The notes under the pieces: model-generated
What the model saw: only the letters and a program-made list of their open reading frames with translations
Told to the model about the DNA's origin: nothing
Databases searched by the model: none
Part shown: in pieces, positions 4,533 through 41,525 of the stretch
Layout of the letters: each line of letters begins with the position of its first letter
How positions within the stretch are numbered: position 1 is the stretch's first letter
Position numbers and translations under genes: made by a program
Assembly (NCBI GenBank): GCA_041651115.1
Contig: JBAZJY010000002.1
Location: 414,855-478,854 of the forward strand
DNA from: Candidatus Omnitrophota bacterium
GTDB taxonomy: Bacteria; Omnitrophota; Gorgyraeia; Gygaellales; Profunditerraquicolaceae
DNA length: 64,000 nt
Direction of reading: 5' to 3'

Positions 4533-4542
4533 GTCGTTCTTT

Positions 4543-4765
4543 TACAATTTTGTGTCTACCTTGTCTTGTTTCTCGCAGGGACGCTCGCCCCGCCCAGCGT
4601 GCGGGGCTTCGTCCTACGCTATCGCGTAGGACTACGCACTACCTGTATAAGAGGAGCTTCGCTCGGGAGTCGGCTTTCGCTCTGCCCTAACGTAAGTGAG
4701 GGCAACCTTGCCCGCTCAAGCCTCCTACGCCCTGCTCAAAACAAGACAAGTTATCCACAAAATTG
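4543..4765. repeat. Family-C structured repeat, copy 1 (about 223 nt; imperfect terminal inverted repeats of about 38 bp, caattttgtg...cttgtcttgttt / aaacaagacaag...cacaaaattg)
   Basis: A near-identical core (ctcgcagggacgctcgccccgcccagcgtgcggggcttcg...ctcgggagtcggctttcgctctgccct...gcccgctcaagcctcctacgccctgctcaaaaca) recurs at 35417..35590. This copy carries an extra 46-nt hairpin insert (tcctacgctatcgcgtaggact...). It is intergenic between the SPFH gene and purD. Confidence 0.8.
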
Positions 4766-4805
4766 ATAACGGAATTAATGTTATATCTGTAAGTTAAGAT
4801 TTTAA

Positions 4806-25227: not shown

Positions 25228-26097
25228 ATGGAACGCTATATAGAAAAATTCATCCGTTATCTGCAGATCGAAAGGAATTATTCTGCTCATACGGTATTAA
25301 ACTACCACCATGACCTGGAGGATTTCCGGGCGTTCCTCGCGGATAAGAATATTGAGGATATTGATTACCTTTTTTTACGGAAGTACCTTGCGCTGCTCAA
25401 AGAGAAGAATATCTCGGCGCGCTCGGTCAGCCGCAGGCTTTCCGCCATGAGGTCATTTTTCAAGTTTCTCGCCCGCGAAGGCCTGCTTAAGGCAAATCCG
25501 ATCTCTATCGTTTCCAGCCCTAAGCAGGAAAAGCGGCTGCCGATATTTCTTACCGAGGAAGAAGTAAAGAAATTGATCGATGCCGTCATTCCCAAAGCGG
25601 AAACAGACGAGGCGGCATTGCGGGACAAGGCGATCCTGGAAACTTTTTACTCAACCGGCATGCGTATTTCCGAGCTTGTTGGTTTAAGTATGCCCGATAT
25701 CGATTTTATCAGCGGGATAATAAAAGTGATGGGCAAAGGGAAAAAAGAGCGGATCGTGCCGATCGGAGAACACGCGATCAAAGCGATCCGGCGGTATTTG
25801 CAAAAGCGCTCTACCGAGTCCGGCGCCCTGTTCCTTAACAAAAATAAACGCCGCATCACCGACAGAGGCGTAAGGAATATAGTCGCCAAATATATCCGGC
25901 TGGCAAGCCTGCGCCAGGGCGTTTCCCCGCATACGTTACGGCATTCATTCGCAACGCATTTATTGAACCGCGGCGCTGACCTCAGGAGCGTGCAGGAATT
26001 ACTGGGCCATGCCAATCTTTCCACGACACAGGTCTATACTCACCTTACCACCGAACGGTTAAAGAGTGTTTACGATAAGGCGCACCCAAGGGCATAA
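25228..26097 (+). CDS. Tyrosine recombinase XerC/XerD family
   Basis: R..HxxR..Y catalytic pattern (HTLRHSFATHLL, LGHANLSTTQVYTH). Confidence 0.88.
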   Translation: MERYIEKFIRYLQIERNYSAHTVLNYHHDLEDFRAFLADKNIEDIDYLFLRKYLALLKEKNISARSVSRRLSAMRSFFKFLAREGLLKANPISIVSSPKQEKRLPIFLTEEEVKKLIDAVIPKAETDEAALRDKAILETFYSTGMRISELVGLSMPDIDFISGIIKVMGKGKKERIVPIGEHAIKAIRRYLQKRSTESGALFLNKNKRRITDRGVRNIVAKYIRLASLRQGVSPHTLRHSFATHLLNRGADLRSVQELLGHANLSTTQVYTHLTTERLKSVYDKAHPRA

Positions 26098-26133
26098 AAA
26101 AGGCAAAAATTAAAACTTAAAAGGCAAAAGTAT

Positions 26134-27417
26134 ATGTTTTTGTTGTACGACTTGATATTTCTGATCATTGCGGTTGTTTTTCTGCCGGCTTATTTATTTA
26201 AGGGTAAATTCCACAAAGGCTTTTTAAGCCGATTGGGATTTTTACCTGCTAATCTGGCGCTGAAGCAGCCGATCTGGGTACATGCGGTCAGCGTTGGAGA
26301 GGCAATGGCGGTAAAGGGGTTGATTGATGCCTTGAGAAAGAAATTTCCCGGAAGGCAGTTGGTGATCTCAAGCGTGACGCCTACGGGCAACAAAGTCATC
26401 AGGGATTTTGCCGTAGAGAATGATTTTGTAACCTACCTGCCGCTGGACTTTAGCTTTATCACCGAAAAGGTGGTGAAAGAGATCTATCCTTCGCTGGTTA
26501 TTATCGCGGAAACCGAGCTCTGGCCGAATTTTATCTTGAGCTTATCCAAAAGAGGGATACCAGTCTTAGTCGTTAATGCCAGGATTTCAGATAAGTCGTT
26601 GCGCGGTTACCTTTGGATCAGGCAAATTTTCAAGCCTATCCTCAATAAAGTGGATCTATTCTGCGCGCAGTCAAGCCGCGACGCGGAAAGGCTCCGGGCC
26701 ATTGGCGTTGCGAAAGAAAAGGTCCGCGTAACGGGAAATATGAAATTTGACGCGATGGATCCTGCTGTCTGTCCTCCGGATGCAGCAGCCGCGGATGCAG
26801 GGTTTAAGCAGGGAATTGGGCTGGCGCCTGAAGCAAAACTCTTAGTTGCCGGATCAACGCATCCCGGGGAAGAAGAGATCGTATTGGGCGCCTATCGCAG
26901 CCTTTCTGCCAAATTTACTTCCTTAAGGCTTGTGCTTGCTCCGCGGCATCCGCACAGGTCTGCCGAGATAATAAAGCTCGTGGTTAAATACGGATTTAAC
27001 CCTTTTCGGGTCAGCCAGCTTAGCGCAAGCAGCAGGCTGCCCGCTGAAAAAGCGGTACTTATCCTGGATGTTGTGGGCAGGCTAAAACCTTTTTACGCTG
27101 CTTCCGATATAGTTTTTGTCGGAGGCAGCCTGATTAAAAAAGGCGGGCATAATATTATTGAGCCGGCTTGTTTTGCCAAGTCGATAATCTGCGGCCCGCA
27201 TATGTTCAATTTTCGCGATATCGCTGACCTTTTTGCCGGAAGCAGGGCGTTTATTATCGTAAAAAGCGGTCAGGAATTAGAAAAGGCAGCGGCTGACCTG
27301 CTGGATAATCCTTCTTCGGCAGCTGAATTAGGAAAAAGAGCCAGGGAATTGGTCGCGCAAAATCAGGGGGCAACGCTGAAAAACCTGGAATGCGCAAGAG
27401 AGCTCCTTAAATGCTGA
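26134..27417 (+). CDS. waaA: 3-deoxy-D-manno-octulosonic acid (Kdo) transferase
   Basis: WaaA N-terminal pattern (PIWVHAVSVGE) and a GT-B C-domain. Confidence 0.85.
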   Translation: MFLLYDLIFLIIAVVFLPAYLFKGKFHKGFLSRLGFLPANLALKQPIWVHAVSVGEAMAVKGLIDALRKKFPGRQLVISSVTPTGNKVIRDFAVENDFVTYLPLDFSFITEKVVKEIYPSLVIIAETELWPNFILSLSKRGIPVLVVNARISDKSLRGYLWIRQIFKPILNKVDLFCAQSSRDAERLRAIGVAKEKVRVTGNMKFDAMDPAVCPPDAAAADAGFKQGIGLAPEAKLLVAGSTHPGEEEIVLGAYRSLSAKFTSLRLVLAPRHPHRSAEIIKLVVKYGFNPFRVSQLSASSRLPAEKAVLILDVVGRLKPFYAASDIVFVGGSLIKKGGHNIIEPACFAKSIICGPHMFNFRDIADLFAGSRAFIIVKSGQELEKAAADLLDNPSSAAELGKRARELVAQNQGATLKNLECARELLKC

Positions 27418-28469
27418 ATTATATTTATAACCTAGCTACCGATAAAGATAACGGCTTACTCGCGTCATTGATAAAAATTTTCTTATATGCGCTTTCCCTC
27501 GCCTATGGCATGATCATCAGGCTGTTGATATTTTTTTATGCTCTCCGGCCTTATCAGGCGGGATGTAAAGTGATTAGCGTGGGGAATATCACTTTAGGCG
27601 GCACAGGTAAAACGCCGCTTGTTGAATATCTCGCAGCCAGGCTTAAAGGGCGCGGCCGTAAGATAGCCGTAGTTACCAGGGGTTATCTTAGCCAGGATGA
27701 GCCGCAGATGCTGGAGGCGAATTTAAGCAATGTACCGGTAATCGTAGATGCTGACAGGCGTAGGGGGATTAAGCGCGGCATAGCTGAATACGGGGTTGAT
27801 ACGGTGGTCCTGGATGACGGGTTCCAGCAATGGCGCATAAAAAAAGACCTGGATATAGTGGTGATAGATTCGCAGAATCCGTTCGGCAACCGGCAGATGA
27901 TTCCGCGCGGCATACTTCGCCAGCCGTTGTCATCGTTAAAGTCAGCGCAGGTTTTTGTCCTGACAAAAACAGACTTGGCCCCGCAGATAGACCGGCTTAA
28001 AGATTTTTTACGGGGCATTAACCCCGGGGCAGTCATTACCGAATCCCGGCACGCAGCGCTGGGATTTTACGAGCTTGGGAAAAAAGAACTCCTGGCCGCC
28101 GCAGCCGTGTTCAAGGAAAAACCCGTTGCTTTACTTTCCGGGATCGGCGATCCGGATTATTTTGCACATTCGGTAAAGGGCACGGGAATTAAAATCGGGC
28201 TGGCTTTTGAATTCCCCGATCATTACGCTTACAGCAGCCAGGATCTGGATAAAATAATAACGGCCTGCGGCGTTGAAGGCTTAGATGCCATCGTTACTAC
28301 CGAGAAAGACGCGGTGAAGCTCCGCAAATTACAAATTACAAATTCCGCCGCAGGCGGACCAGCCTACGGCTGGCACAAATTACAAATTTTTGTGTTACGC
28401 AGTGAATTACAAATTACAAAAAATGAACAAGGACTTCTGGAAAGATTATTTAAGTTGTACGGCGCTTAA
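27411..28469 (+). CDS. lpxK: Tetraacyldisaccharide 4'-kinase
   Basis: ISVGNITLGGTGKTP P-loop and TTEKDAVKL. The 3' end carries ACAAATT heptamer repeats and overlaps the next gene. Confidence 0.85.
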   Translation: MLNYIYNLATDKDNGLLASLIKIFLYALSLAYGMIIRLLIFFYALRPYQAGCKVISVGNITLGGTGKTPLVEYLAARLKGRGRKIAVVTRGYLSQDEPQMLEANLSNVPVIVDADRRRGIKRGIAEYGVDTVVLDDGFQQWRIKKDLDIVVIDSQNPFGNRQMIPRGILRQPLSSLKSAQVFVLTKTDLAPQIDRLKDFLRGINPGAVITESRHAALGFYELGKKELLAAAAVFKEKPVALLSGIGDPDYFAHSVKGTGIKIGLAFEFPDHYAYSSQDLDKIITACGVEGLDAIVTTEKDAVKLRKLQITNSAAGGPAYGWHKLQIFVLRSELQITKNEQGLLERLFKLYGA

Positions 28470-30375
28470 ACTGATCGGCCCGCTGATCCGCCTGCTGCCG
28501 TTCAGGATAAGCATGCGCCTTGGCAGGGCTGTCGGTGAATTGATGTATTGGTTTGATTTTAAGCATCGCGCCATTGCCTATGCTAACATAAAAAGGGCTT
28601 TAGGCGCAGAGCTTTCTCCCCGGGAATTAAAGAAGACAACGCGAAATTTTTTCCGCGCCTTTGGCCAGAACATCATAGATATTTTTCTTATTCCCCTGAT
28701 CGGCAAGAAGCATATGGATAAATATCTGGAGATAGAAGGCAGGGGCAATATTGCCGCAGCATTCAAAAAAGGCAAGGGCGTGATATTTTTGGCCGTGCAT
28801 GCCGGAAGCTGGGAGCTTTCCAACGTCATCTGCGCAAACCTCGGCTTTCCCTTCCGGATGTTCGTGCGCAGCCAGAATATGCCGCGGCTGAATAAATTAT
28901 TGAATTCTTACCGTCAGCAAAATGGCTGCCGCATATTTGAACGCGATGACCATGGCCAGTTGCGCGAGCTGATCAAGACATTAAAAGATAACGAGGCTAC
29001 GGGAATGACTATTGATCAAGGGGGAAGGTCCGGGATGCTCATCGATTTTTTCGGCAAGAATGCCTCGATGTCTTCCGGGGCGATAAAGCTTGCTTTAAAA
29101 TATGATGCGGCGATATTGCCGTCTTCTTACGCCCGAAAAAATGGCGCATATTATAAGCTGGTTATTGACCCGCCGTTTGAGCTGAAAAAAACAGGCGATC
29201 CGGATGCGGACGTAAAGAATAACCTGCAGGCGCTGGTGAAGTTATTTGAGGGGCATATCCGGCAATATCCCGCCGAATATCTCTGGACGTATAAGATATG
29301 GAAATATTCCAATACAAGGGACATACTTGTTTTAAGCGACGGCAAAGCCGGCCACTTAAGGCAATCAGAAGCAGCGGCTAAGGCCATAGTGGATTGTCTT
29401 AGGCAGCGCGGGATAACCGCGAGGGTTAAGACGCTTGAGGTAAAAATTTCCGGTAAGTTCGGACGTTCTTGCCTGGCGCTCTGCGGAATGTTTTCAGGAA
29501 AATATTCCTGTCAGGGCTGCCTGGCGTGTTTGCGCAGGTTTATTCCTAAAGAAAGCTACGGGTCGTTGGTTAGAGAAGCCGCGGATATTGTTATCTCCTG
29601 CGGCTCATCATTAGCGGGTATTAATCATTTTATCGCGCGGGAAAACCGCGCGAGGTCGGTAGTAATCATGCGGCCGGCATTTTTAGGCTTGAGAAGGTTT
29701 GACTTGGCAATAATACCGCGCCATGACCGTCCGCCAAAAAGGAAGAATGTGGCGGTTACCGAAGGCGCCTTGAATCTGATCGACGCCGGTTATTTAAAGG
29801 AGCAGGCGGAAAAACTAACGCAAGCGCCGGGCTTCAGTCGCCAGGCATCGGGCCTTAACATAGGCGTATTGATCGGCGGAGATGCAAAAAATTTTCATCT
29901 GGATCCCGGCGTAGTAAAGACAGTGATCAGTCAAATAAAGTCATTTGCTCAAGAAGAAAGTGCGGCCTTGCTTGTTACTACTTCGCGCAGGAGCGGCCCT
30001 GAAATTGAGGCGTTAGTCAAAAGTGAATTAGGGAATTATGCGGCCTGTAAATTTCTTGTTATCGCCGGTGAAAATAACCCTGAATTCAGCGTGGGAGGTA
30101 TACTTGGTTTAAGCGATATCGTGGTTGTTTCCCCGGAAAGCATTTCTATGGTTTCTGAAGCTGCCAGCTCCGGAAAATACGTAATTGCCTTTGATGCGCA
30201 AGTCAGCCGCCGGCACCGCAGATTTTTGTCCGGATTGGCAGAGAAAAAATATATTTATCTTCAGCCGGCGCAGGAGCTTTCCAGCCTGATGAGCAGGATA
30301 AAGTCGCAGCGGCCGGAGATCAAAATATTGAATGACAGGGATAGCCTTAAAGAAGCGATCGGTAGGATAATATGA
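28423..30375 (+). CDS. Lipid A biosynthesis lauroyl/myristoyl acyltransferase (LpxL/HtrB-like) fused to a C-terminal Elm1/DUF1022-like putative glycosyltransferase domain
   Basis: The N-terminal roughly 300 aa is LPLAT-family. The C-terminal roughly 340 aa resembles PF06258 (Elm1-like). The start is placed at MNKDFW; the upstream ATG at 28390 is also possible. Confidence 0.7.
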   Translation: MNKDFWKDYLSCTALKLIGPLIRLLPFRISMRLGRAVGELMYWFDFKHRAIAYANIKRALGAELSPRELKKTTRNFFRAFGQNIIDIFLIPLIGKKHMDKYLEIEGRGNIAAAFKKGKGVIFLAVHAGSWELSNVICANLGFPFRMFVRSQNMPRLNKLLNSYRQQNGCRIFERDDHGQLRELIKTLKDNEATGMTIDQGGRSGMLIDFFGKNASMSSGAIKLALKYDAAILPSSYARKNGAYYKLVIDPPFELKKTGDPDADVKNNLQALVKLFEGHIRQYPAEYLWTYKIWKYSNTRDILVLSDGKAGHLRQSEAAAKAIVDCLRQRGITARVKTLEVKISGKFGRSCLALCGMFSGKYSCQGCLACLRRFIPKESYGSLVREAADIVISCGSSLAGINHFIARENRARSVVIMRPAFLGLRRFDLAIIPRHDRPPKRKNVAVTEGALNLIDAGYLKEQAEKLTQAPGFSRQASGLNIGVLIGGDAKNFHLDPGVVKTVISQIKSFAQEESAALLVTTSRRSGPEIEALVKSELGNYAACKFLVIAGENNPEFSVGGILGLSDIVVVSPESISMVSEAASSGKYVIAFDAQVSRRHRRFLSGLAEKKYIYLQPAQELSSLMSRIKSQRPEIKILNDRDSLKEAIGRII

Positions 30376-32462
30376 ACATTTTACAAATATTGCCCGAACT
30401 GAACGTCGGGGGGGTTGAGACGGGTACGCTTGACATGGCAAAGTACCTGGTCAGGCTTGGCCATAAAGCAGTAGTCGTTTCAAATGGCGGGAATCTGGTC
30501 AAGGAGCTTGAGGCCTTGGGCGCTGTGCATTACCAGCTTCCCGTGCATAAGAAATCTTTTTCCACGATGATCAAATGCGTGCCTAAACTGGCGGAGATCA
30601 TTAAAAAGGAGAAGATAGATATTGTCCACGCGCGTTCGCGTGTGCCGGCCTGGATTGCTTATTTTGCCGCAAGAAAATCCGGCTGTTTGTTTATCACTAC
30701 TTGCCATGGTTACTATAAGAAGCATCCGTTTAGTTATGTAATGGGCTGGGGAAAGCGAGTTATTTGCCCCAGTAACGTGATTGCCCGGCATATGATCGAT
30801 GATTTCAACGTTCCGCACGAACGGATAAAGCTGGTTCCGCGCAGCGTGGACCTGGAAAAATTCAAATTCGTCAGCCCGGATAAAAAGCGCAAAGCGGAGT
30901 TTAACGTCGGCATAATCGGCAGGATCACGCCGATAAAAGGCCACTTGCATTTTATCAAGGCAATGGCAAAGCTTAGCCGGTCAGTGCCTCGGCTTAAGGT
31001 CTGGATAATCGGAGATGCGCCTGCTTCACGCGAAGCCTATAAAGAACAAATACAGGTCCTGGCGCGCAGGCTCGGCCTCTGGAATTGCACGCAGTTTCTG
31101 GGTACGCAGCGCGATATCCCGTCTATACTTTCCCATCTTGACCTTTTGGTGCTTCCTACGACCACGCAAGAGGCATTTGGCAGGGTGATTATCGAGGCGC
31201 AGGCAGCAGGTGTACCGGTGATCGCCACAAAGGTCGGCGGCATAGTGGATGTTATTGACGACGGAATAACCGGCATGCTTGTTCCGCCGGCTGACCCTTC
31301 GGCAATAGCAGAGGCGGCGTTGAAGATATTTAGGGACAGTGATTTTTCCGCCAGGCTTGCTGCGGCAGCCCTGGAAAAAGCAAAAGACAGGTATAACGTG
31401 GAATTAATGGTGAATAATACCATTGAAGTCTATCAGCAGGCTTTGGATAACTTTAATATACTGGTGATAAAATTAAGCTCGCTGGGCGACGTGATACTTT
31501 CCAGCGCGGCTTTGCGGGCGATCCGGAAAAAGTTCGGTCCGAATTACAAGATCGCCGTACTGGCGGGCAATGAATCAAAAGACGTGCTTTTTTCCTGCCC
31601 GTATATAGACGAGCTGCTCGTTTGCGATCTAAAGAGCAGGGATAAGGGATTAGCCGGTATCTGGAAGCTCGGCCGGGTTTTAAGAAAAAAGAATTTTGAC
31701 ATTGTTATTGACCTGCAGAATAACCGCGCAAGCCATATACTTTCTGCCTTGAGCCTGGCAATAAACCGCTACGGCTATGCCAACAAAAAATTATCTTTCT
31801 TGCTTAACCACCGGATAAAAAACGAAAAACCGGCGATCGATCCGGTCAGCCATCAGTTCAAGGTGCTTGAGATGCTGGGCATAAAACTGGAAGACCCCGC
31901 GTTAGAATTATGGCCGTCGCAGGAAGATGCGCGTTACATCGATGAATTCCTGAGCGCTCAATGGATGAGCGCAACCCAGAAGATCGCGGGGATAAATATA
32001 AACGCCAGCCAGCGCTGGTTAAGCAAGAGCTGGCCGCTTGCCCAGATGACAAAACTATGCGAAGAGCTGTCGCGGCTGGACATGCGGGTGGTTATTACCG
32101 GCACAAAGGATGACGCCCAAAAAGCGGATCTCCTTGCCGGCTCCCTGAAGAACTCGCCGGTGATAAATGCCTGCGGTAAGACAACGGTTAACCAACTGGC
32201 GTGCCTGATCAAAAAATGCGACGTCTATATTTCCGCAGATTCCGCTCCTTTGCATATTACCGCGGCAATGAAAACGCCCTTCATCGCTTTATTCGGGCCG
32301 ACTGACCCGGCCAGGCACCTGGCGCCGGCAAAGGATTATGTGCTGATAAAAAAGGATCTGCATTGCAGCCCTTGTTATAAGCCGAAATGCGGGAATAAGA
32401 AGTGTATGAACCTGATTACGGCAGAAGAAGTGCTGGCAGCAGTAAAGAAATTATTAAAATGA
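30372..32462 (+). CDS. Fusion of a GT4-family glycosyltransferase (N) and a GT9 heptosyltransferase-like domain (C)
   Basis: N: ILPELNVGGVETG plus an EX7E-type C-terminus of the GT4 half. C: ILVIKLSSLGDVILSSAALRAI...HCSPCYKPKCG, typical of WaaC/WaaF. Confidence 0.8.
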   Translation: MNILQILPELNVGGVETGTLDMAKYLVRLGHKAVVVSNGGNLVKELEALGAVHYQLPVHKKSFSTMIKCVPKLAEIIKKEKIDIVHARSRVPAWIAYFAARKSGCLFITTCHGYYKKHPFSYVMGWGKRVICPSNVIARHMIDDFNVPHERIKLVPRSVDLEKFKFVSPDKKRKAEFNVGIIGRITPIKGHLHFIKAMAKLSRSVPRLKVWIIGDAPASREAYKEQIQVLARRLGLWNCTQFLGTQRDIPSILSHLDLLVLPTTTQEAFGRVIIEAQAAGVPVIATKVGGIVDVIDDGITGMLVPPADPSAIAEAALKIFRDSDFSARLAAAALEKAKDRYNVELMVNNTIEVYQQALDNFNILVIKLSSLGDVILSSAALRAIRKKFGPNYKIAVLAGNESKDVLFSCPYIDELLVCDLKSRDKGLAGIWKLGRVLRKKNFDIVIDLQNNRASHILSALSLAINRYGYANKKLSFLLNHRIKNEKPAIDPVSHQFKVLEMLGIKLEDPALELWPSQEDARYIDEFLSAQWMSATQKIAGININASQRWLSKSWPLAQMTKLCEELSRLDMRVVITGTKDDAQKADLLAGSLKNSPVINACGKTTVNQLACLIKKCDVYISADSAPLHITAAMKTPFIALFGPTDPARHLAPAKDYVLIKKDLHCSPCYKPKCGNKKCMNLITAEEVLAAVKKLLK

Positions 32463-33553
32463 AGATATTATTATTGGCAAATCATCTTAATGTCGGCGGG
32501 ATCACCAGCTATGTTTATTCTCTTGGTTGCGGAATGAAAGCGGCCGGGCATTATGTTTATGTGGCTGCTTCCGGAGGCGAAACATTGCCGAAATTCAAAG
32601 CCGCAGGCATAGAGTTTATTCGCTTGCCGTTGAACACGAAAGCGGAAGCCGGCCCTAAAGCGCTGTTTAGCCTATTCAGGCTTTTACTTCAGCTGCGGGA
32701 GAAAAAGATCGATATTATGCATGCAAATACCCGCGTTACGCAGGTAGTAGCTTGTCTGGCTGCCAGGTTTTCCGGCGTGCCTTTTGTGTCCACCTGCCAC
32801 GGATTTTTTAAGACAAGAGTTTTTCGTAGAGTATTCCCGTGCTGGGGCAAAAGGGTCATTGCCGTCAGCCAACAGGTTAAGGAACATTTAACGGATGATT
32901 TCCGGGTTGATGCGGGAAGAATAAGAGTTATTGCCAACGGCATAGATATAGCAAAATTCAAGGCCATGGACCCGGGATCAAAAAATGAGGCAAAAATAAA
33001 ATTAGGATTAGGCAGCGGCCCGGTGATCGGCATCGTTGCCCGGCTCTCCGATGTCAAGGGCCACGTTTATCTTATTGAGGCAATGCAAAAGGTGCTTCTG
33101 GATATTCCCGCTGCGCAGTTGGTGATTGCCGGAGATGGAAAAATGAAAGATACGTTAGTGTCCTTAAGCAAACGGCTGGGTATCGCGGAAAAAGTATTTT
33201 TTGTCCCTACGCTTGCGGATACCCTGGACGTCCTTTCAGCCTTAGACCTTTTTATTCTGCCTTCGCTTAAGGAAGGCCTGGGCCTGAGCCTGATGGAAGC
33301 AATGGCCTGCGGCATCTGCAGCATCGGCTCCAATATCGGCGGCATAAAGACTTTGATACAAGACGGATATAGCGGGATTTTAGTCGAGCCTAAAAACATA
33401 AACGCGATTTATCGCGCCATAACCGGGCTTTTAAAAGATCCCGCGAAGAGGGAAATGCTCGGCGCAAACGGCCGGGAATTTATTACCGGCAGGTTTTCTC
33501 TTGAACAGATGGTATCTTCTACAGAAGGGGTTTATAAAGAATGTTTAAGTTAA
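32459..33553 (+). CDS. GT4-family glycosyltransferase
   Basis: MKILLLANHLNVGGITSYV ... EGLGLSLMEAMACG. Confidence 0.8.
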   Translation: MKILLLANHLNVGGITSYVYSLGCGMKAAGHYVYVAASGGETLPKFKAAGIEFIRLPLNTKAEAGPKALFSLFRLLLQLREKKIDIMHANTRVTQVVACLAARFSGVPFVSTCHGFFKTRVFRRVFPCWGKRVIAVSQQVKEHLTDDFRVDAGRIRVIANGIDIAKFKAMDPGSKNEAKIKLGLGSGPVIGIVARLSDVKGHVYLIEAMQKVLLDIPAAQLVIAGDGKMKDTLVSLSKRLGIAEKVFFVPTLADTLDVLSALDLFILPSLKEGLGLSLMEAMACGICSIGSNIGGIKTLIQDGYSGILVEPKNINAIYRAITGLLKDPAKREMLGANGREFITGRFSLEQMVSSTEGVYKECLS

Positions 33554-34341
33554 CGCGTAAAGTTTTAATAACTTTTTTGGCCGCAGTATTGCTGTTTACG
33601 GCTGCATTCTTCGGTTTTATGCGGGACAAATATATTATCCCGGTATTTATGTACCATTCTGTAAGCCCGCAGCAAGACCCGGGTTCTAATGCGCTTATCG
33701 TGACGCCGCAGGCATTTGAAAGGCAGATGCGCTTCCTAAAAAATTTCAGCTATAATGTCATGCCCCTTGAGGCAGTAGCGGAACTGATCAGAAATAAAAA
33801 GAAGCTTCCGCCGCGGTTGGTTGTCATAACCCTTGACGACGGATACAAGGATAATTATACCTATGCCTTTCCGGTGTTAAAAAAATACGCGCTTCCGGCA
33901 ACAATATTCATCATTACCGGCGAAGTGGGCAGGCCGGACAGGTTAAGCTGGGGCGAGATTAAGGAAATGCAATCTTCCGGGTTTATTACTTTTGGCAGCC
34001 ACTGCCTCGGCCCGGAACCGCTGATAAACATTAAATCCGGAGATGAAGTGAAGAGGCAGATATTTGAATCAAAAAGGATCCTGGAAGAAAAATTAGGCGC
34101 GCCGGTTGCGATGTTCAGTTATCCCGAAGGAAAATTCAACTTTAAAATAAAGCAACTGGTGGCCGATGCCGGATATAAGCTTGCGGTAGCCACAACCCCG
34201 GGCATAAAATATCCTGCTTCAGACGTTTTCCTGATAAAGCGGCTGCGTATTTCCGAAAACGCCGCCAATCCGTTCGTGCTTTGGTTCAAGGCAAGCGGAT
34301 TTTATAGTTTTTTCCGGGAGAGCCGGGATAAATATAAGTAA
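33541..34341 (+). CDS. Polysaccharide deacetylase (NodB homology domain)
   Basis: VITLDDGYKDNY and ATIFIITGEVG NodB motifs, with an N-terminal TM helix. Confidence 0.8.
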   Translation: MFKLTRKVLITFLAAVLLFTAAFFGFMRDKYIIPVFMYHSVSPQQDPGSNALIVTPQAFERQMRFLKNFSYNVMPLEAVAELIRNKKKLPPRLVVITLDDGYKDNYTYAFPVLKKYALPATIFIITGEVGRPDRLSWGEIKEMQSSGFITFGSHCLGPEPLINIKSGDEVKRQIFESKRILEEKLGAPVAMFSYPEGKFNFKIKQLVADAGYKLAVATTPGIKYPASDVFLIKRLRISENAANPFVLWFKASGFYSFFRESRDKYK

Positions 34342-34366
34342 TCCTTATGCAGAAAAGGAGCGAAGC

Positions 34367-35395
34367 ATGAATCCTAAACGCATATTGATCTTTAATGTTA
34401 ATTGGCTGGGGGACGTTTTGTTCTCTACGGCAGCAATCAGGAATGTCCGGCGTAATTACCCAGAAAGTTTCATTGCCTGCGTTATACCCAGCCGGTGCTA
34501 TCCGGTGCTTAAAGGCAACCCTCATCTGGATGAAGTGATCATTTTTGATGAGGCAGACCGCCATAAGGCCACGCTGGAAAAACTTAAATTCGTCAAATAC
34601 CTCAAAGATAAAAAATTCGACATTGCTTTCTTATTGCACCGTTCTTTTACCCGGGCATTGATCTGCCGGCTTGCCGGCATCCCCGAGAGGATCGGACACT
34701 ACACTAAAAAACGCGCTTTTCTATTGACGAAGAAGATCGTCCCACCTGAGCGCGACAGCCTGCACCGCATTGATTATTATTTGAACGTTATTGAGCAGGC
34801 AGGCCTGCGTATTGAAGACAGGTATACCGAATTTTTCGTGAGCGATGAAGACGATGATTTTGCCGGTACTTTTCTCAAAAATAACTCCCTGGGGAAAAGC
34901 GATTTTATAGTCGGGGTCAACGCCGGCGGGAATTGGCTTCCGAAGCGCTGGCCCGTGCATTATTGGGCAGAGCTTTGCGACCGGCTGATCTCGGAGCTTG
35001 GGTGTAAGGTCATCGTTACCGGCAGTTCAGCGGACCTTAAGCTTGCAAGGAGCATCCAGGATTCAATGAAAGCGAAGCCGGTCATTGCAGCCGGGATATT
35101 TAATATTAAGCAGATGGCGGCATTATGCAAAAAATTAGATTTGTTCATTACCGCCGATACCGGGCCGCTGCATATTGCCAATGCGGTGGGCGCCAAAAAA
35201 ATAATCGCGCTCTTCGGCCCGACGTCTCCGGCGATCACCGGCCCGTTCCCGTCTACCAACGTGGCGATCCTGCGTAAAGACGTGGGCTGCAAGATTCCCT
35301 GTTATGTAGTCAAGTGTAAAGATAACAAGTGTATGAAGGCAATTACCGTAGATGATGTTGTCAACGAAGTTAGGCAGCTTTTACCTAAGCGTTAA
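34367..35395 (+). CDS. GT9 lipopolysaccharide heptosyltransferase
   Basis: ILIFNVNWLGDVLFSTAAI ... ADTGPLHIANAVG ... C-x-PC. Confidence 0.82.
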   Translation: MNPKRILIFNVNWLGDVLFSTAAIRNVRRNYPESFIACVIPSRCYPVLKGNPHLDEVIIFDEADRHKATLEKLKFVKYLKDKKFDIAFLLHRSFTRALICRLAGIPERIGHYTKKRAFLLTKKIVPPERDSLHRIDYYLNVIEQAGLRIEDRYTEFFVSDEDDDFAGTFLKNNSLGKSDFIVGVNAGGNWLPKRWPVHYWAELCDRLISELGCKVIVTGSSADLKLARSIQDSMKAKPVIAAGIFNIKQMAALCKKLDLFITADTGPLHIANAVGAKKIIALFGPTSPAITGPFPSTNVAILRKDVGCKIPCYVVKCKDNKCMKAITVDDVVNEVRQLLPKR

Positions 35396-35416
35396 TTTAT
35401 AACTAATTATGTATTT

Positions 35417-35590
35417 CTATTTTGCGTCTGCCTTGTCTTGTTTCTCGCAGGGACGCTCGCCCCGCCCAGCGTGCGGGGCTTCGCTCGGGAGTCGGCTTTC
35501 GCTCTGCCCTAGCGCATACTCGGGCAACCGTGCCCGCTCAAGCCTCCTACGCCCTGCTCAAAACAAAACAAATCAGCCGCAAAATTATAT
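35417..35590. repeat. Family-C structured repeat, copy 2 (about 175 nt)
   Basis: It shares the core and TIR-like ends with 4543..4765 but lacks the 46-nt insert. It is intergenic between GT9 genes. Confidence 0.8.
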
Positions 35591-35600
35591 GGCATAACAT

Positions 35601-37640
35601 ATGGAGGACATTAAGAAAATATTATTCATTACTTTAAGCAACATCGGTGATGTTGTGTTGACCTTGCCGGCGCTGGACCATTTGCGGCAGAAGTTCCCGT
35701 CGGCAAAGGTCTCGGTGATGTGCGGCCAGCGGGCAAGGGAAATATTTGAAGGTGCTCCTTTTATTGAGGAAACGGTCATTTTTGATAAACACGCGGCGTT
35801 AAAAGAAAAAATAAGGCTGTTCAAAGCCTTAAAAGCCAAGAAGTTTGACGCCGTGATCGACCTGCGCAATTCTTTGTTCGGTTTGGGCCTGCCGGCAAAA
35901 TACAAGGTCCCGGTTTTGCGAAAACTTCCTGCGGGTTTGGCGCATATGAAGGATAAGCACTTGTATAAAGTAGCGGGAAAGCAGGCTGCAGATAGCCTGC
36001 GGCATTCGCTTTATATCTCTGCCGCTGATGAAGACTGCGTCGGCCGGATATTAAAGGACAGCCATATTGCTGTCGATGACAGATTGATAGTTATTGCGCC
36101 GGGAAGCCGCAGTCACACCAAGAAATGGGCTAAGGAAAAATTTGTGGAGTTGATTAATCTATTGGCTGGCGAAACAGGGGTAAAAATAGTATTAGCCGGA
36201 GATAAAGCTGATTTGGATACTGCCGATTATATTGCCGCTGCCTGCGGGGCAAAGGCGATAAACCTCTGCGGAAAAACTAATTTGCGCGAGCTCGCCTGCC
36301 TTTTAAAAAGATCAACGCTGCTAGTGACTAATGACAGCGCAGCCTTGCACATAGCGGGTTATTTAGATATCCCGGTTGTCGCGGTATTCGGCATAACCAA
36401 TGAAGTTAAGTATGGCCCGTGGTCACAGAGGCGCGCAGTGGTCAAAAGGGATATTTTCTGCCGGCCATGTGAAAAGGCGCAGTGCAGATTTGGTACTTTG
36501 AAATGTATGCAGCTGATAAAAGTGGAAGACGTATTAAGAGCAGCTAAAGAACTCTTATTCCAGCACCCAGCACCTAACACCAAACACCTGAAACCTGATT
36601 TCCGGCGTATACTTGTTGTGCGCACAGACAGGATCGGCGATGTGCTCCTTTCCACGCCTGTGTTTAAGGCGTTGCGGCAAGCCTATCCGAGCGCTTATAT
36701 TGCCGCGATGGTCAGCCCCTACGCTAAAGAGATCGTTGAAGGCAATCCTTATATTGACGACGTCATAATCTACGATAAAGATTTTAAGCACCGGAGCTGG
36801 AGCAGGTCAATGAAATTCGCTTCCCGGCTGCGTAAAAAGCATTTTGACCTGGCGCTTATCCTGCATCCTATAAACCGCAGCCACCTGATCGCCTTCTTTG
36901 CCGGCATAAAAAGAAGGATCGGTTTTGACAGGAAGCTGGCCTTTTTGCTTACCGATAAAATAAAACACGTTAAGCAGGAAGGAGATAGGCATGAATTGGA
37001 ATATACGCTTGACCTCGTAAGATACTTAGGCATTGAACCGCAGGATAAACAGCCGTTCATGCCGTTAAAGCCTGATTCGGAAAAGTGGGCTGATGAATTG
37101 TTCAGCCGTGAGTCCTTGACAGCGCAGGATAGGTTGTTGGCGATAAATCCCGCTGCCAGCTGCCCGTCTAAGATCTGGCCGGCAGAAAGGTTTGCCGAAA
37201 CAGCGGATAAACTGGCGGATAAATACGGCTTTAAGGTATTGATCTTTTCCGGGCCGAAAGATACAAAATTAGCGGAAACAGTCTTAGGCCATATGCAACA
37301 CCGGGTGATCAACCTTGCGGGAAAAACATCCGTCAGCCAGCTTGCCAGCGCGTTAAAGCGGTGCAGCCTGTTTATTTCCAATGATTCCGGGCCGGTGCAT
37401 ATTGCCGCGGCCGTGGGAGTGCCGGTGATCTCCATTTTCGGCAGGAACCAGAAGGGTTTGAGCCCGAAAAGATGGGGGCCGGTGGGGCCCCTGGATATTA
37501 TTTTGCACCGGCAGGCAGGATGCATCGAATGCCTGGCGCATAATTGCCTGAAAGATTTTGCCTGTTTAAAGTTGATCAAGGTTGACGACGTTGTTAAGGC
37601 AGCAGATACTATCTTGGAAGCACGTAGAGATCATGGTTAA
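35601..37640 (+). CDS. Tandem double GT9 heptosyltransferase (two complete GT9 modules in one 679-aa protein)
   Basis: Module 1 is ILFITLSNIGDVVLTLPAL...DSAALHIAG...CRPC. Module 2 is ILVVRTDRIGDVLLSTPVF...DSGPVHIAAAVG...CIEC. Confidence 0.82.
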   Translation: MEDIKKILFITLSNIGDVVLTLPALDHLRQKFPSAKVSVMCGQRAREIFEGAPFIEETVIFDKHAALKEKIRLFKALKAKKFDAVIDLRNSLFGLGLPAKYKVPVLRKLPAGLAHMKDKHLYKVAGKQAADSLRHSLYISAADEDCVGRILKDSHIAVDDRLIVIAPGSRSHTKKWAKEKFVELINLLAGETGVKIVLAGDKADLDTADYIAAACGAKAINLCGKTNLRELACLLKRSTLLVTNDSAALHIAGYLDIPVVAVFGITNEVKYGPWSQRRAVVKRDIFCRPCEKAQCRFGTLKCMQLIKVEDVLRAAKELLFQHPAPNTKHLKPDFRRILVVRTDRIGDVLLSTPVFKALRQAYPSAYIAAMVSPYAKEIVEGNPYIDDVIIYDKDFKHRSWSRSMKFASRLRKKHFDLALILHPINRSHLIAFFAGIKRRIGFDRKLAFLLTDKIKHVKQEGDRHELEYTLDLVRYLGIEPQDKQPFMPLKPDSEKWADELFSRESLTAQDRLLAINPAASCPSKIWPAERFAETADKLADKYGFKVLIFSGPKDTKLAETVLGHMQHRVINLAGKTSVSQLASALKRCSLFISNDSGPVHIAAAVGVPVISIFGRNQKGLSPKRWGPVGPLDIILHRQAGCIECLAHNCLKDFACLKLIKVDDVVKAADTILEARRDHG

Positions 37641-37762
37641 GTTATTGGGTTAAGGTTAAGAAGCCAGTATGGTAGTTAGGTTAGGGTTAAGTATTAATGA
37701 CCTAACCATAACCTTTAAACCATACCGGCATCCTAGCCCTAACCTTAACCATAACCTAACTA
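37641..37762. repeat. Family-A palindromic intergenic repeat, copy 2
   Basis: gttattgggttaaggttaagaagccagtatggt...ccataccggcatcct...aaccttaacc. Confidence 0.85.
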
Positions 37763-37766
37763 AAAA

Positions 37767-38744
37767 ATGAAGAAGATATTATTGATTCTTGCCTTATTTT
37801 TCTACTTTTCTCCCTGTCTTGCTGCGGACTTTGGCGCTTCGGATATGAAGAAGATATCCGACGAGCTTAAACGCGACCGGCAGGAGATGGAAAGGACCCG
37901 TCAGGCAATGAAGCAGGCAGAATGGGAAAAAAGACAGGTCGATGACGCCATAAAACGCCAGCGCGATGAGGCAAAACAATTACAGCGGCAGCTGGAAGAA
38001 GAAAAGCGCAGCGAACTTGCCAGGAGAAAGGCTGAAGAGGTCCGCAAGCCGAACAAATTCGTTGAGTTTATTGCCAGCTGGCCGGTACAATTCGCGTTTT
38101 ATTTCCTGGTCTTTGCCGGGTTCGGCACGCTGCTTTACTTTAAGGTCCTGGCGCCGCGTAAGAAGCCGGCTGAAGAAGAGCCTACCATTGAAGAGATAGG
38201 GCCGGATGTTTTGGCGGCAGCGACTCATTGGAGGTTCCGGGAAAAGGACTTTAAGAAATACCAGATGAAGCTTTCCGCTTTGGCCGATGCCAAAGTTATC
38301 GACGTGGATTCCGCGGAATTCAAAAAATATTTTATCCGGGATATGGTCATGACGGAGATCCTTTTTCAGGCTGCCGTGAGCAGGAAACTTGACAGCGATG
38401 CGGTATTTTTGGCCGAACTGAACAAGTATAAAGATTACGTATCGGGCTTAAATAAAGAAGGCGCGGCTTTTTTGAAATTATTGAATGATTATAAATCAAG
38501 TTTTGTCCCTGCCGCAGGCCAAAGGCCCGCCTATGCCGCTTATTATAAAGGCTTTTTGGACCTGCTCATGATCTTAAATGCTAACGAGGAGACCGAAATA
38601 TTTGAATTATACGAGAGGTTCCTTTTGATAAATAAGCTCGCCGGCTCAGGCGACGCTGCCGCCATGCAGCATGCGCTTGACGTCATCATCAATGAATTTA
38701 AATTAGCGCACAACGTGATCATCAAAGAGGAGGCTGCGGCATAG
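37767..38744 (+). CDS. Hypothetical signal-peptide protein with a periplasmic R/E/Q-rich coiled coil, one TM helix and a cytoplasmic helical domain
   Basis: 325 aa; signal MKKILLILALFFYFSPCLA; TM at FAFYFLVFAGFGTLLYF. I recognise no family. Confidence 0.5.
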   Translation: MKKILLILALFFYFSPCLAADFGASDMKKISDELKRDRQEMERTRQAMKQAEWEKRQVDDAIKRQRDEAKQLQRQLEEEKRSELARRKAEEVRKPNKFVEFIASWPVQFAFYFLVFAGFGTLLYFKVLAPRKKPAEEEPTIEEIGPDVLAAATHWRFREKDFKKYQMKLSALADAKVIDVDSAEFKKYFIRDMVMTEILFQAAVSRKLDSDAVFLAELNKYKDYVSGLNKEGAAFLKLLNDYKSSFVPAAGQRPAYAAYYKGFLDLLMILNANEETEIFELYERFLLINKLAGSGDAAAMQHALDVIINEFKLAHNVIIKEEAAA

Positions 38745-38749
38745 CATCC

Positions 38750-40108
38750 ATGGAAAAAAGATCAGTCTCTTTGATTTTGCCGATGTTTAACGAGAAAGAA
38801 TACCTGGAAAAAACGGTTTCCACGGTCATTTCGGTTTTAGAGCCGTCATTCCCGGACTTTGAAGTAATCGTGGTTGATGACGCCAGTAACGACGGATCCG
38901 GGATGGTCGCCGAGCGGCTGGCTGCCGGGGACAGCCGGATCAGGGTCATTCATCATAAGAAAAACCGTAAGCTGGGCGGAGTTTTAAAGACCGGGTTTTC
39001 CGCGGCTTCAAAAGAGATCGTGGTCTATACGGATATGGATATGCCGTTTGATTTGTCGCAGTTAAGCGCGGTAATCCCCCTGGTTTTTGACTCCGATATA
39101 GTAATCGGCTGCCGTATAGGTAAAAGAGAGTCCTTCCTGCGCGTAGTTTATTCCTGGGCATACAATAAGTTGATAAATGTCATATTTAAGACCCGGGTCA
39201 AAGATGTGAATTTTGCCTTAAAAATATTTAAAAGAAAAATTTTAAACGAGATTAAACTGAAGTCCGAAGGCTCGTTCATAAATGCCGAATTCCTGGCGAA
39301 AGCACGAAAGCTTGGATACTCGATAAAAGAGGTAGAAATTGATTACACGCCGCGGACCTACGGTATTTCCCGGTTGTCCACGCCGCCGGTTATATGTAAA
39401 GTATTATACGAGATCGTAAAGTTTTATCCTGAGATCATCCGGTTCTCTAAAAAAAAGGCGATCTATGGCAGGCTGCGTGATTTTTATAAAAATGCCGGGC
39501 GCAAGGCAAAAATCTATAATTTCCTGCGTTTTAAGACCTGCCCTTTTGACAAGATAGAAAAATTCATCCCGAAGACAGGCAGTATATTGGATTTGGGATG
39601 CGGCACGGGCCTCTTGCTTAATACTTTGCGGCTGGAACAGGACAAACGGGCATTATTTGGTTTTGACCGGGACGCAAGAAAAATTGGGATTGCCGCGATC
39701 AGCCTGAATGAAAGCAGGGACATAGTTTTTAAAAAAGCGGACATTAGCGGCAGCAGCCTTGATTTGCCTAAAGCCAGCGCCATTATCTTAACGGATGTCA
39801 TGTATTGCCTGGATCATGAGAAAAAAATTGGCCTGTTGGAAAAATGTTTTACTGCGTTAGATGCCGGCGGCACGCTGCTGATCAAGGATATTGATAGAAG
39901 CTTCAATATAAAGTTTTTCTGGGCCTTCCTGCAGGAGTTCCTGGCGGTAAAAATCTTCGGCCTGACTTCTGCCGACGGGATTTATTTTGAAAATAAAAAG
40001 CAGTACCTTTCACTCCTGAAAAAAAGCGGTTTTATCGCTAATCAGTATTTTGACCTGAGCAAAGGGTATTTCTATCCTCATATTCTATATGCCGGAAAAA
40101 AACCGTAG
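38750..40108 (+). CDS. GT2-family glycosyltransferase (HpnI/ArnC-like, polyprenyl-phosphate sugar transferase type) fused to a class-I SAM-dependent methyltransferase domain
   Basis: N: SLILPMFNEKEYL, VVDDASNDGS, YTDMD. C: ILDLGCGTGLL (motif I) and LLIKDID. Confidence 0.75.
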   Translation: MEKRSVSLILPMFNEKEYLEKTVSTVISVLEPSFPDFEVIVVDDASNDGSGMVAERLAAGDSRIRVIHHKKNRKLGGVLKTGFSAASKEIVVYTDMDMPFDLSQLSAVIPLVFDSDIVIGCRIGKRESFLRVVYSWAYNKLINVIFKTRVKDVNFALKIFKRKILNEIKLKSEGSFINAEFLAKARKLGYSIKEVEIDYTPRTYGISRLSTPPVICKVLYEIVKFYPEIIRFSKKKAIYGRLRDFYKNAGRKAKIYNFLRFKTCPFDKIEKFIPKTGSILDLGCGTGLLLNTLRLEQDKRALFGFDRDARKIGIAAISLNESRDIVFKKADISGSSLDLPKASAIILTDVMYCLDHEKKIGLLEKCFTALDAGGTLLIKDIDRSFNIKFFWAFLQEFLAVKIFGLTSADGIYFENKKQYLSLLKKSGFIANQYFDLSKGYFYPHILYAGKKP

Positions 40109-41525
40109 AAAAATACTCTTTATCAATCCTCCCTTAAGCATAAATCAACGTTATGGAATGTTGGGGCAAGCCGGGGGCAGCGAACCTCCCCTGGGTTTAT
40201 GCTATTTGGCTGCCGCGGTGAGAAAAGAAGGTTTTACAGCCGGAATAATTGATGCGCAGGCGCAAAGACTCGGGTTAAAAGAAACAATGGAGCTGATTAA
40301 GGCCTTTGAGCCGTGTTATGTAGGCATTACGGCTTCGACAATGGCCATAGAAAGCGCTGCGGCCTTGGCGCGGGATATAAAAGTGTCGGACCCCGGCATT
40401 AAAATTATAATCGGCGGCTGCCATATCAGCTCTTTACCCGCGGAAACTTTTGCTGAATACAAATTTTTTGATATCGGGGTAATCGGTGAAGGGGAGGATA
40501 CGGTCCGGGAGCTGCTCTTGGCCCTGGAGAACAATATGGGCTTAAAAGATATCAAGGGTATCGCCATAAGAGAAAACGGGAGTGTTTATTTATCGTTGCC
40601 GCGGCCAAGGATAAAAGACCTGGACAGTTTAGCCTATCCTGCTTTTGATCTGCTGCCTGACATACGCAGATTCTATAGGTTACCGGCGCAAAGTTTGGCT
40701 GATAGCCGCAGTTTTTCGTTAGTCACTTCCCGCGGCTGCATGGGAAAGTGTTCTTTTTGCGACAAAAAAGTTTTTGGAAATTATATAAGCATGCACAGTG
40801 CTGAATATATAACAGAAATGATTCGCATCTTAAATCAGGATTACAAAATAACCAATATAATGTTTGAGGACGATAATTTTATGGCCTCCAGGCAAAGGCT
40901 GAAGGACATAGCCGATTTAATGGCTAAAAAAAAGCTTAAGACCCGCTGTACGGTTTTAGCGCGGATGGATAACGTAGACGAAGAATCGTTAAAAATATTA
41001 AAAGGCATGGGTTGCTGGCAGATATCATACGGCATTGAAAGCGGCTCCCAAAGGATTTTAGATTTTTATAATAAAGGGATTACTGTCCAGCAAATAAGAA
41101 ACGTGGCAGGATTGACCAAAAGCGCCGGTTTAAAAGTTAAATGCTTTTTTATCTGGGGTAACCCAACGGAAGACCGGGAATCCATCAGGGAAACCGCTGA
41201 TCTTGTAAAAAATTCCGGTGTTGATGATATTTCGGTAACTTTCTTTACGCCTTTTCCCGGCTCAGAGATATGGCCGGATATAAGATCTTACGGGGATTTT
41301 GATAAAAACTGGGAAAAAATGAGCTGTTTTGAATTGGTTTTTAGGCCTTACGGGTTGGAAAAAGAATATTTAATCAACAGCAGGAAAAAAATCTTGAGAG
41401 ATTTTTATTTTCGGCCTAAACTTATATTTTCTTATTTGATCCGTATCAGATCGCTGGCGCAACTTAAAGAACTGATTTTAAGCGCCTATTGTTTGTTCCG
41501 TTATATATTAAAAGGGGTGGAATGA
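40089..41525 (+). CDS. B12-binding-domain radical SAM protein (class B; HpnJ-like)
   Basis: The N-terminal cobalamin-binding Rossmann-like region is followed by CMGKCSFC (CX3CX2C); 478 aa. Confidence 0.8.
   Translation: MPEKNRRKILFINPPLSINQRYGMLGQAGGSEPPLGLCYLAAAVRKEGFTAGIIDAQAQRLGLKETMELIKAFEPCYVGITASTMAIESAAALARDIKVSDPGIKIIIGGCHISSLPAETFAEYKFFDIGVIGEGEDTVRELLLALENNMGLKDIKGIAIRENGSVYLSLPRPRIKDLDSLAYPAFDLLPDIRRFYRLPAQSLADSRSFSLVTSRGCMGKCSFCDKKVFGNYISMHSAEYITEMIRILNQDYKITNIMFEDDNFMASRQRLKDIADLMAKKKLKTRCTVLARMDNVDEESLKILKGMGCWQISYGIESGSQRILDFYNKGITVQQIRNVAGLTKSAGLKVKCFFIWGNPTEDRESIRETADLVKNSGVDDISVTFFTPFPGSEIWPDIRSYGDFDKNWEKMSCFELVFRPYGLEKEYLINSRKKILRDFYFRPKLIFSYLIRIRSLAQLKELILSAYCLFRYILKGVE

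Follow-up and report, generated by a model that had tools for sequence, protein, structure and literature searches.

Enzymes that carry consecutive or related steps of glycan synthesis on one polypeptide are known from several pathways of polysaccharide and lipopolysaccharide (LPS) formation, including WbdA with two GT4 domains, tandem KpsC and the bifunctional HldE. The lipid A acyltransferase LpxL of Escherichia coli is a stand-alone protein, and to our knowledge neither a fusion of late lipid A acylation with a core glycosyltransferase nor a fusion of two core GT9 enzymes has been characterised. Here, we describe a 64,000-nucleotide (nt) stretch of a Candidatus Omnitrophota bacterium (assembly GCA_041651115.1, contig JBAZJY010000002.1, positions 414,855 to 478,854; called the window in the following, all coordinates being positions in it) in which three genes, named F1, F2 and F3, each encode two enzyme domains predicted to act in lipid A and inner-core synthesis. 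F1 joins an LpxL-type acyltransferase to a domain of the ELM1/GtrOC1 family, F2 a GT4 to a heptosyltransferase-like GT9 module and F3 two GT9 modules. They follow the same principle as WbdA, KpsC and HldE, which serve the synthesis of O-antigen, capsule or precursors. With a probability of about 75% we consider the region as a conserved lipid A/inner-core operon of the Omnitrophota whose three fused genes encode genuine bi-domain enzymes with the roles and the origin proposed below. The fusions are architectures as yet uncharacterised, assembled from known families; the databases already list them under the names of single domains, and they do not represent a new type of system.

The N-terminal half of F1 belongs to the same family as E. 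coli LpxL and LpxM of Acinetobacter baumannii (5KN7), shares their H-x4-E dyad and superposes as a model on LpxM and PatA. Its location directly after waaA and lpxK is the one expected for an acyltransferase of late lipid A synthesis that depends on 3-deoxy-D-manno-oct-2-ulosonic acid (Kdo), yet unlike E. coli LpxL it is covalently joined to a GT-B domain. This C-terminal half falls into the family PF06258 (Mito_fiss_Elm1) that was named after the plant mitochondrial-fission factor ELM1, and NCBI lists homologues as "ELM1/GtrOC1 family putative glycosyltransferase". For GtrOC1 of A. baumannii, itself only a predicted glycosyltransferase, the predicted role is to form the first bond that links the inner core to the outer one (PMC4172580); in chemical genomics it groups with lpt genes (PMC11975115). 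In Acinetobacter it is a stand-alone protein of the OC locus, whereas the Omnitrophota domain is fused to LpxL, is about 27% identical and contains a conserved CxxCxxC loop as an extra. The closest described relatives of the four GT9 modules are the E. coli heptosyltransferases WaaC, WaaF and WaaQ (2H1F, 1PSW) and Veillonella 3TOV, with which all four share the N-terminal Asp, KxW and DSGxxH; superposition on 3TOV and 1PSW yields target-normalised TM-scores of 0.82-0.87. Three of the four modules are parts of fusions, unlike the E. coli heptosyltransferases and 3TOV, and a C-terminal cluster of four cysteines found in all of them is absent from 3TOV.

Domain composition of the operon

The genes concerned form an unbroken run on the forward strand (26134-37640):

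26134-27417, + strand: waaA/kdtA Kdo transferase (PF04413, E 3.1e-60)
27411-28469, + strand: lpxK tetraacyldisaccharide 4'-kinase (PF02606, E 2.2e-71; TIGR00682, 177.9 bits against a cut-off of 91.95)
28423-30375 (or from 28390), + strand: F1, LpxL plus ELM1/GtrOC1 domain, 650 amino acids (aa) from the ATG at 28423
30372-32462, + strand: F2, GT4 plus GT9 (Pfam and NCBIfam matches)
32459-33553 (most likely start), + strand: single-domain GT4 (Pfam match, blastp)
33541-34341, + strand: CE4 polysaccharide deacetylase with an N-terminal hydrophobic segment (PF01522, E 2.2e-23)
34367-35395, + strand: single-domain GT9, heptosyltransferase-like (PF01075, E 1.5e-35; TIGR02195, 146.6 bits against a cut-off of 134.6)
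35407-35599, + strand: structured dispersed intergenic repeat between the single GT9 and F3 (RNA fold)
35601-37640, + strand: F3, GT9 plus GT9 (two PF01075 stretches)

The NCBIfam models for lipid IV(A) Kdo transferases match waaA with E 6.6e-108 but below the equivalog cut-off. The start of F1 overlaps the end of lpxK by 47 nt, and 4-nt ATGA overlaps connect F1 with F2 and F2 with the single GT4 gene. F1 and F2 adjoin, so far in agreement with the original prediction of three consecutive open reading frames (ORFs), but this description has to be corrected for F3, since the single-domain GT4, CE4 and GT9 genes are located between it and F2; a gap of 205 nt separates F3 from the single GT9 gene. 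A scan of 25900-38900 for promoters and terminators gave no more sites than in shuffled sequence. The other part of the prediction, that each of the three ORFs comprises two full enzyme domains, is borne out by Pfam and NCBIfam annotation with scores far above the Pfam cut-offs. At least 120 full-length homologous clusters from independent metagenomes were found for each fusion, and the alignments used below for motifs and junctions were built on 120 sequences each.

In F1 the LpxL domain (about 28480-29304) is matched by PF03279 (Lip_A_acyltrans, E 9.6e-48, 163.3 bits against a cut-off of 22.3) and the GT-B domain of ELM1/GtrOC1 type (about 29347-30258) by PF06258 (E 1.6e-44, 152.7 bits against 27). 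The former stays under the cut-off of all 17 matching NCBIfam models (best NF006270 with 132.8 against 248 bits) and thus has no equivalog-level identity to characterised LpxL, LpxM or LpxP; the isolated ELM1 domain gives no match to any NCBIfam model and has no solved relative by sequence in the PDB. The catalytic dyad H126-x4-E131 occurs in 120/120 homologues, and the motifs DGKxGHxxQ, GG, TSRR and ESxSMxSEA of the ELM1 domain are invariant. The two domains meet in a gap-free, strongly conserved junction with a linker of at most six residues. An AlphaFold2 model of F1 (predicted local distance difference test, pLDDT, 87.7; predicted template modelling score, pTM, 0.84) shows residues 298-650 as alternating strands and helices, mostly with pLDDT >85, i.e. 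as a GT-B (double Rossmann) fold. Foldseek against the PDB retrieves LpxM and PatA for the N-terminal half and, for the ELM1 half, GT-B proteins of low similarity (E 1e-7 to 1e-6). The CxxCxxC loop of the latter (29507-29530, residues 363-369, with C363 and C366 in 118/120 homologues) was modelled with low confidence.

In F2 the GT4 module (aa 1-358, 30372-31445; PF13439 and PF00534, E about 1e-34 to 1e-39) is followed without a linker by the GT9 module (aa 362-695, 31455-32456; PF01075, E 1.6e-37). The EX7E motif E267-x7-E275 of the GT4 module is present in 120/120 homologues, and also here the junction is gap-free and strongly conserved. In the AlphaFold2 model (pLDDT 87.2, pTM 0.81) the last GT4 helix (343-359) continues directly into the first GT9 strand (361-367). 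Structural neighbours found by Foldseek are the Rickettsia GT4 7MI0 (31% identity), HepE and BshA for the GT4 domain, and 3TOV and WaaF for the GT9 domain. No solved PDB chain covers both halves of F1 or of F2, and no PDB entry extends over two such modules (Foldseek).

F3 consists of two PF01075 stretches (E 1.2e-80), an N module (aa 1 to about 320, 35601-36560) and a C module (aa 336-672, 36606-37616), connected by a variable linker of 15-20 aa with indels among the homologues. The Gly-rich N-terminal motif and the CxxC-like C-terminal end, which the original prediction had read from the translations, are real and nearly invariant: every GT9 module of the operon carries (S/T)xxGD(V/I) at its N-terminus and the cluster of four cysteines at its C-terminus. 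The latter, C-x2-C-x4-C-x4-6-C, is near-invariant in the three fused modules, whereas the window's single GT9 gene, judged from its own sequence, has the same motifs with a C-x3-C in its cluster. Like the CxxCxxC loop of the ELM1 domain, these clusters are possible metal sites.

The roles of the GD, KxW and DSGxxH motifs are known from E. coli HepI. Conservation of GD, KxW and DS(G/A)xxH amounts to 97-100% in the GT9 module of F2 as well as in each half of F3. When the modules were scanned separately, the HepII model TIGR02195 (cut-off 134.6) scored 145 and 168.6 bits for the two F3 halves, 137.2 for F2 and 146.6 for the single GT9, so that all four exceed the cut-off, while none reaches those for HepI (185.3) or HepIII (170.2). 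Matches to PDB sequences (weakly WaaC for the N module, WaaF for the C module) had offered a division of F3 in a WaaC-like and a WaaF-like half; this assignment was rejected, as HepII is the best model for every module. The four GT9 modules are mutually 28-35% identical and the GT4 domain of F2 is 33% identical to the single GT4 gene (blastp); the GT9 modules as well as the two GT4 domains are old paralogues and not recent duplicates.

All modules look catalytically competent. One could object that one module of each fusion is degenerate and serves as a non-catalytic scaffold or acceptor-binding domain, as the N module of F3, the most divergent of the GT9 modules, aligns with the HepII model in two separate pieces, and as no demonstrated activity of ELM1 was found. 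We regard such degeneration as highly improbable in view of the constancy of the GT9 motifs just mentioned (GD, KxW and DSxxxH at 97-100% in F2 and in the F3 halves), of the invariant EX7E and H/E residues in the GT4 and LpxL domains and of the equally invariant DGKxGH, TSRR and ESxSMxSEA of the ELM1 domain.

Conservation and age of the fusions

For each fusion an exact database entry exists on a 579-kb contig labelled Candidatus Omnitrophota (F1 corresponds to the 650-aa P0121). The homologous clusters cover about 100% of the length with identities of 49-68% for F1, 69-83% for F2 and 58-74% for F3, and all named ones among them are from Omnitrophota or Omnitrophica. A scan with the F2 alignment detected relatives in 420 species-level genomes, and the following locus counts refer to the best 80 of them, with one genome per GTDB species. 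All 80 loci match residues 1 to about 696 of F2 although both search patterns were located in the GT4 half. Wherever the contig reaches, the gene order is topA-xerC-waaA-lpxK-F1-F2-GT4-[CE4]-GT9-F3. F1 is intact in 61/64 loci. In 57 loci something follows the single GT9, and 52 of these carry a fused F3. The single GT4 is present in every locus reaching its position; CE4 is a variable member, found in 40 and missing in 24 of the related loci that cover its place. In every module of the three fusions, conservation of the catalytic motifs is 97% or higher.

The source records of these 80 genomes are nearly all titled Omnitrophota. In several of them (L013, L022, L024, L037 and others; related loci bear L numbers) the operon occurs at 67-70% identity under the title "uncultured Planctomycetales bacterium" or "Patescibacteria group bacterium". 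These titles are probably taxonomic mislabels of metagenome-assembled genomes.

The original prediction had suggested a survey of relatives for the same fusions; they recur there, in hundreds of independent assemblies, with at least 120 full-length clusters for each of them and a common gene order in 80 genomes. Errors by which a stop codon was lost, or the reading frame changed, between two genes that are in fact separate would be conceivable in an operon whose genes overlap by only 4 nt (ATGA), where a single wrong base could join them, and F1 indeed appears as two ORFs in three related loci (L033, L070, L071). We considered these as natural splits into LpxL and ELM1 and discarded them: they break inside domains, at three different positions, and hence are assembly frameshifts and not ancestral genes. 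Given the number of independent full-length clusters, the continuous ORFs in 80 species-level genomes and the gap-free, conserved junctions of F1 and F2, the chance of an artefact is practically negligible, and for the family as a whole we regard it as excluded by conservation rather than by reads.

With F1 as the query, HMMER retrieved 592 clusters (E <= 1e-30) from 1.84 billion representatives. Among the top 150, a length of at least 600 aa is reached by 121, and single full-length alignments extend down to 29% identity. One of the most distant named members (31% identity) is again from the Omnitrophota. Five deep relatives with an F1 identity of 31-40% were examined (L081, L082/L083, L089, L090, L091). 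The order lpxK-F1-F2-GT4-GT9 is kept in all five, and dprA, xerC and waaA precede lpxK in all four loci that extend upstream, topA in three of these four. Both F1 and F2 are fused in 5/5, and these two fusions are therefore old within the phylum.

Outside the Omnitrophota a plasmid collection was sampled. It yielded a protein with the architecture of F1 (PF03279 plus PF06258), namely the 674-aa WP_226069883.1 from plasmid pWTT2411 (NZ_CP095734.1) of the cultured gammaproteobacterium Methylophaga pinxianii, which is annotated solely as "ELM1/GtrOC1 family putative glycosyltransferase". It shares 24% identity with F1, lacks the CxxCxxC loop and has a linker of about 75 aa where F1 has almost none. 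In this plasmid-borne locus (L087, 5950-11002) the fusion is followed by GT4, GT4 and GT9, which are separate genes, unlike in F2, with an O-antigen ligase on the opposite strand and an LTA-synthase-family protein and a PAP2 phosphatase nearby. It is a plasmid-borne LPS-core module whose gene content recalls that of the Omnitrophota operon. As far as E. coli is concerned, the original prediction was right to call such fusions rare in model bacteria, but they are the rule in Omnitrophota, and the LpxL+ELM1 pair is also found in Methylophaga.

Two further candidates from plasmids were rejected. Apparent GT9+GT9 fusions of Burkholderiales and Azospirillum, covering 96-99% of F3, resulted from both halves aligning to one and the same single GT9 gene of ~1 kb, and in a Hyphomicrobiales plasmid (L088) with a match seemingly crossing the F1 junction the ORF stops after the LpxL domain, so that there is no fusion.

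Proposed function and pathway context

Both domains of each fusion are intact and are inherited together as one ORF across lineages. Our proposal is that all modules act on a growing Kdo-lipid A acceptor at the cytoplasmic side of the inner membrane. The LpxL domain of F1 would attach a secondary acyl chain, and its ELM1 GT-B domain would add a sugar early in the core, in line with what has been proposed for GtrOC1 of Acinetobacter. ADP-heptose would be the donor for heptose transfer by the four GT9 modules, and hexoses would be added by the two GT4 modules. Thus, F1 would combine late acylation with early glycosylation, F2 hexosyl with heptosyl transfer and F3 two heptosyl transfers. Most probably the fusions arose by loss of stop codons at 4-nt ATGA overlaps in a tightly coupled operon, and they would hold the partner activities at 1:1 stoichiometry and close together on one membrane-bound substrate.

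Beyond F3 the operon continues with a GT2+methyltransferase gene, a B12-radical SAM (S-adenosylmethionine) protein, a YdjC deacetylase, a PMT/ArnT-like glycosyltransferase and a GSU2086-family protein, followed by a heptose-7-phosphate kinase, kdsB, kdsA, kdsD, kdsC, an LptC+LptA-like gene and lptB. In the relatives L081 and L091 a PfkB-family gene directly follows the GT9 genes. These neighbours and two further fused genes of the window are:

38750-44528, + strand: GT2 (ArnC/PgaC-like) plus SAM methyltransferase, B12-radical SAM protein, YdjC deacetylase and 732-aa PMT_2/ArnT-like glycosyltransferase
45570-46592, + strand: heptose-7-phosphate kinase, rfaE domain I (TIGR02198, 375.5 bits against a cut-off of 345)
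49629-50552, + strand: LptC+LptA-like fusion, 307 aa (LptC at aa 14-169, E 2.5e-17; LptA/OstA at aa 197-293, E 2.5e-10)
6759-7820, + strand: Sua5/YciO/YrdC plus low-molecular-weight phosphotyrosine phosphatase fusion
15622-16548, + strand: Macro plus NUDIX fusion

The heptose kinase, the kds and lpt genes, waaA and lpxK support a role in the LPS inner core as well as heptose as donor. A target other than LPS, such as an exopolysaccharide (PelF-like) or proteins (heptosylation of BAHT type), has to be considered since a part of the F2 homologues is annotated by NCBI as "GT4 family glycosyltransferase PelF", F2 itself scores 114.7 bits with the PelF model (cut-off 100), weak matches to TibC/Aah occur and the specificities of GT4 and GT9 enzymes are not readable from sequence. 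The match to the PelF model, however, is limited to its C-terminal half, each GT9 module scores above the HepII cut-off, one of the fusion partners is a lipid A late acyltransferase and the genes are invariably flanked by waaA-lpxK on one side and by the genes for heptose kinase, kds and lpt on the other, so that we judge glycosylation of another target to be very unlikely.

Several results weigh against the operon reading with three genuine bi-domain LPS enzymes. From the ADP-heptose pathway the kinase is the sole gene seen in the 64-kb window, in which neither gmhA and gmhB nor genes for the adenylyltransferase and the epimerase were seen. The step order of the GT9 modules (HepI, HepII, HepIII) cannot be assigned because all four look HepII-like. 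No glycosyltransferase activity is documented for any ELM1/GtrOC1 member in the literature searched, and the best structural matches of the ELM1 half are UDP-GlcNAc 2-epimerases, followed by TreT and MGD1. A literature search also returned no description of these fusions and no biochemical or structural data on them or on Omnitrophota LPS. Moreover, F3 is fused in two of the deep relatives (L089, L091) but is represented by two separate adjacent GT9 genes in the other three (L081, L082/L083, L090). These are the reciprocal best matches of its N and C halves in the same order, and F3 is a patchy fusion of two neighbouring orthologous GT9 genes. In one metagenomic lineage present in two assemblies (L085, 1893-2990; L086, 1867-2964) a stand-alone ELM1 protein of 365 aa directly follows lpxK and is itself followed by F2. 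It starts exactly at the position of the F1 junction, and no LpxL domain is found between lpxK and F2; F2 is intact in L086 and split in two ORFs in L085, probably by a frameshift. Fusion is therefore dispensable in nature, with F3 split and ELM1 alone in some lineages.

These variants, together with the many other fusions in the window, speak against a requirement for fusion, and it could be argued that the fusions are real but neutral by-products of genome compaction, without kinetic coupling or channelling. The variable linker of F3 would fit such an origin, the ATGA overlaps between the operon genes offer a simple neutral route to it, and besides the Sua5+phosphatase and Macro+NUDIX genes also GT2+methyltransferase and LptC+LptA-like fusions are encoded in the window. 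On the other hand, F1 and F2 are still found as fusions at ~30% identity, their linker-free junctions are invariant and their pTM is high, and the gammaproteobacterial LpxL+ELM1 protein with its ~75-aa linker suggests a favoured pairing. We regard neutrality as a tentative explanation with less than even chances. The linker-free junctions of F1 and F2 and the pTM values of 0.81-0.84 are compatible with coupling and hint at a fixed geometry, and substrate channelling between the fused halves may occur. The rigid junctions of F1 and F2, the retention of both fusions to ~30% identity and the occurrence of LpxL+ELM1 in Methylophaga with a very different linker all speak for a favoured pairing.

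A stronger version of the proposal would be that the ELM1/GtrOC1 family as such acts on Kdo2-lipid A at the stage of late acylation and that the inner core of the Omnitrophota is built by the three two-headed enzymes, each active site passing the membrane-bound intermediate on to the next in a true channelled line, as the original prediction had implied. The linker-free LpxL+ELM1 fusion, conserved in the Omnitrophota sampled, would be Rosetta-stone evidence for this activity of ELM1, but taken as a whole this version appears unlikely to us.

Within the preferred reading of genuine bi-domain enzymes of lipid A/inner-core synthesis, the LpxL+ELM1 fusion is the most useful piece as it ties the ELM1 family to the Kdo2-lipid A stage, and natural fused, split and domain-loss variants are available for testing this link. 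The Omnitrophota are abundant and largely uncultured, and no published data on their envelope chemistry were found; the operon provides a compact and very stable parts list for lipid A and core with one Kdo transferase, one late acyltransferase, one ELM1-type, two GT4 and four GT9 modules. Automated annotation names the proteins by a single domain ("heptosyltransferase II", "PelF", "ELM1/GtrOC1"), and pathway reconstructions based on these names will therefore under-count the enzymes.

Variable genes, the intergenic repeat and other features

In L091 the block 38750-44528 is missing, and the heptose kinase and kdsB come soon after F3; the block thus seems to have been inserted into the operon as a variable part. 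This set of genes resembles those for lipid-carrier aminosugar modification of lipid A or core (ArnC/D/T, Francisella FlmF2/NaxD/FlmK). The product of 49629-50552, followed by lptB, would be a fused periplasmic component of the LPS bridge. The Sua5+phosphatase and Macro+NUDIX genes are located outside the LPS region, and gene fusion seems to be common in this genome.

The repeat between the single GT9 gene and F3 (35407-35599) is an insertion, since these two genes abut in most relatives. It is a GC-rich element of about 190 nt with a minimum free energy of -75.9 kcal/mol (z = -4.95), and its fold comprises a long closing stem and internal hairpins with compensatory changes at 9 base pairs across five copies. 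A second copy is located in the window at 4538-4768, and further ones are found in L021 (9041-9240), L042 (17080-17284, minus strand) and L048 (16993-17196) as well as in L034, L030, L035, L060, L058 and L064. In 1.45 Mb of Omnitrophota DNA nhmmer detected 14 matches on both strands, while Rfam gave none for the element. It could be a MITE/REP-like element (miniature inverted-repeat transposable or repetitive extragenic palindromic) or belong to an undescribed family of non-coding RNA.

The plus strand at 16675-16753 matches the c-di-GMP-I-GGC riboswitch aptamer RF03167 (E 4.6e-14; 68.4 bits, gathering score 59). The Macro+NUDIX gene precedes the gap in which this aptamer is located, and on the minus strand a DEAD/DSHCT helicase gene (16977-18854) has its end opposite to it.

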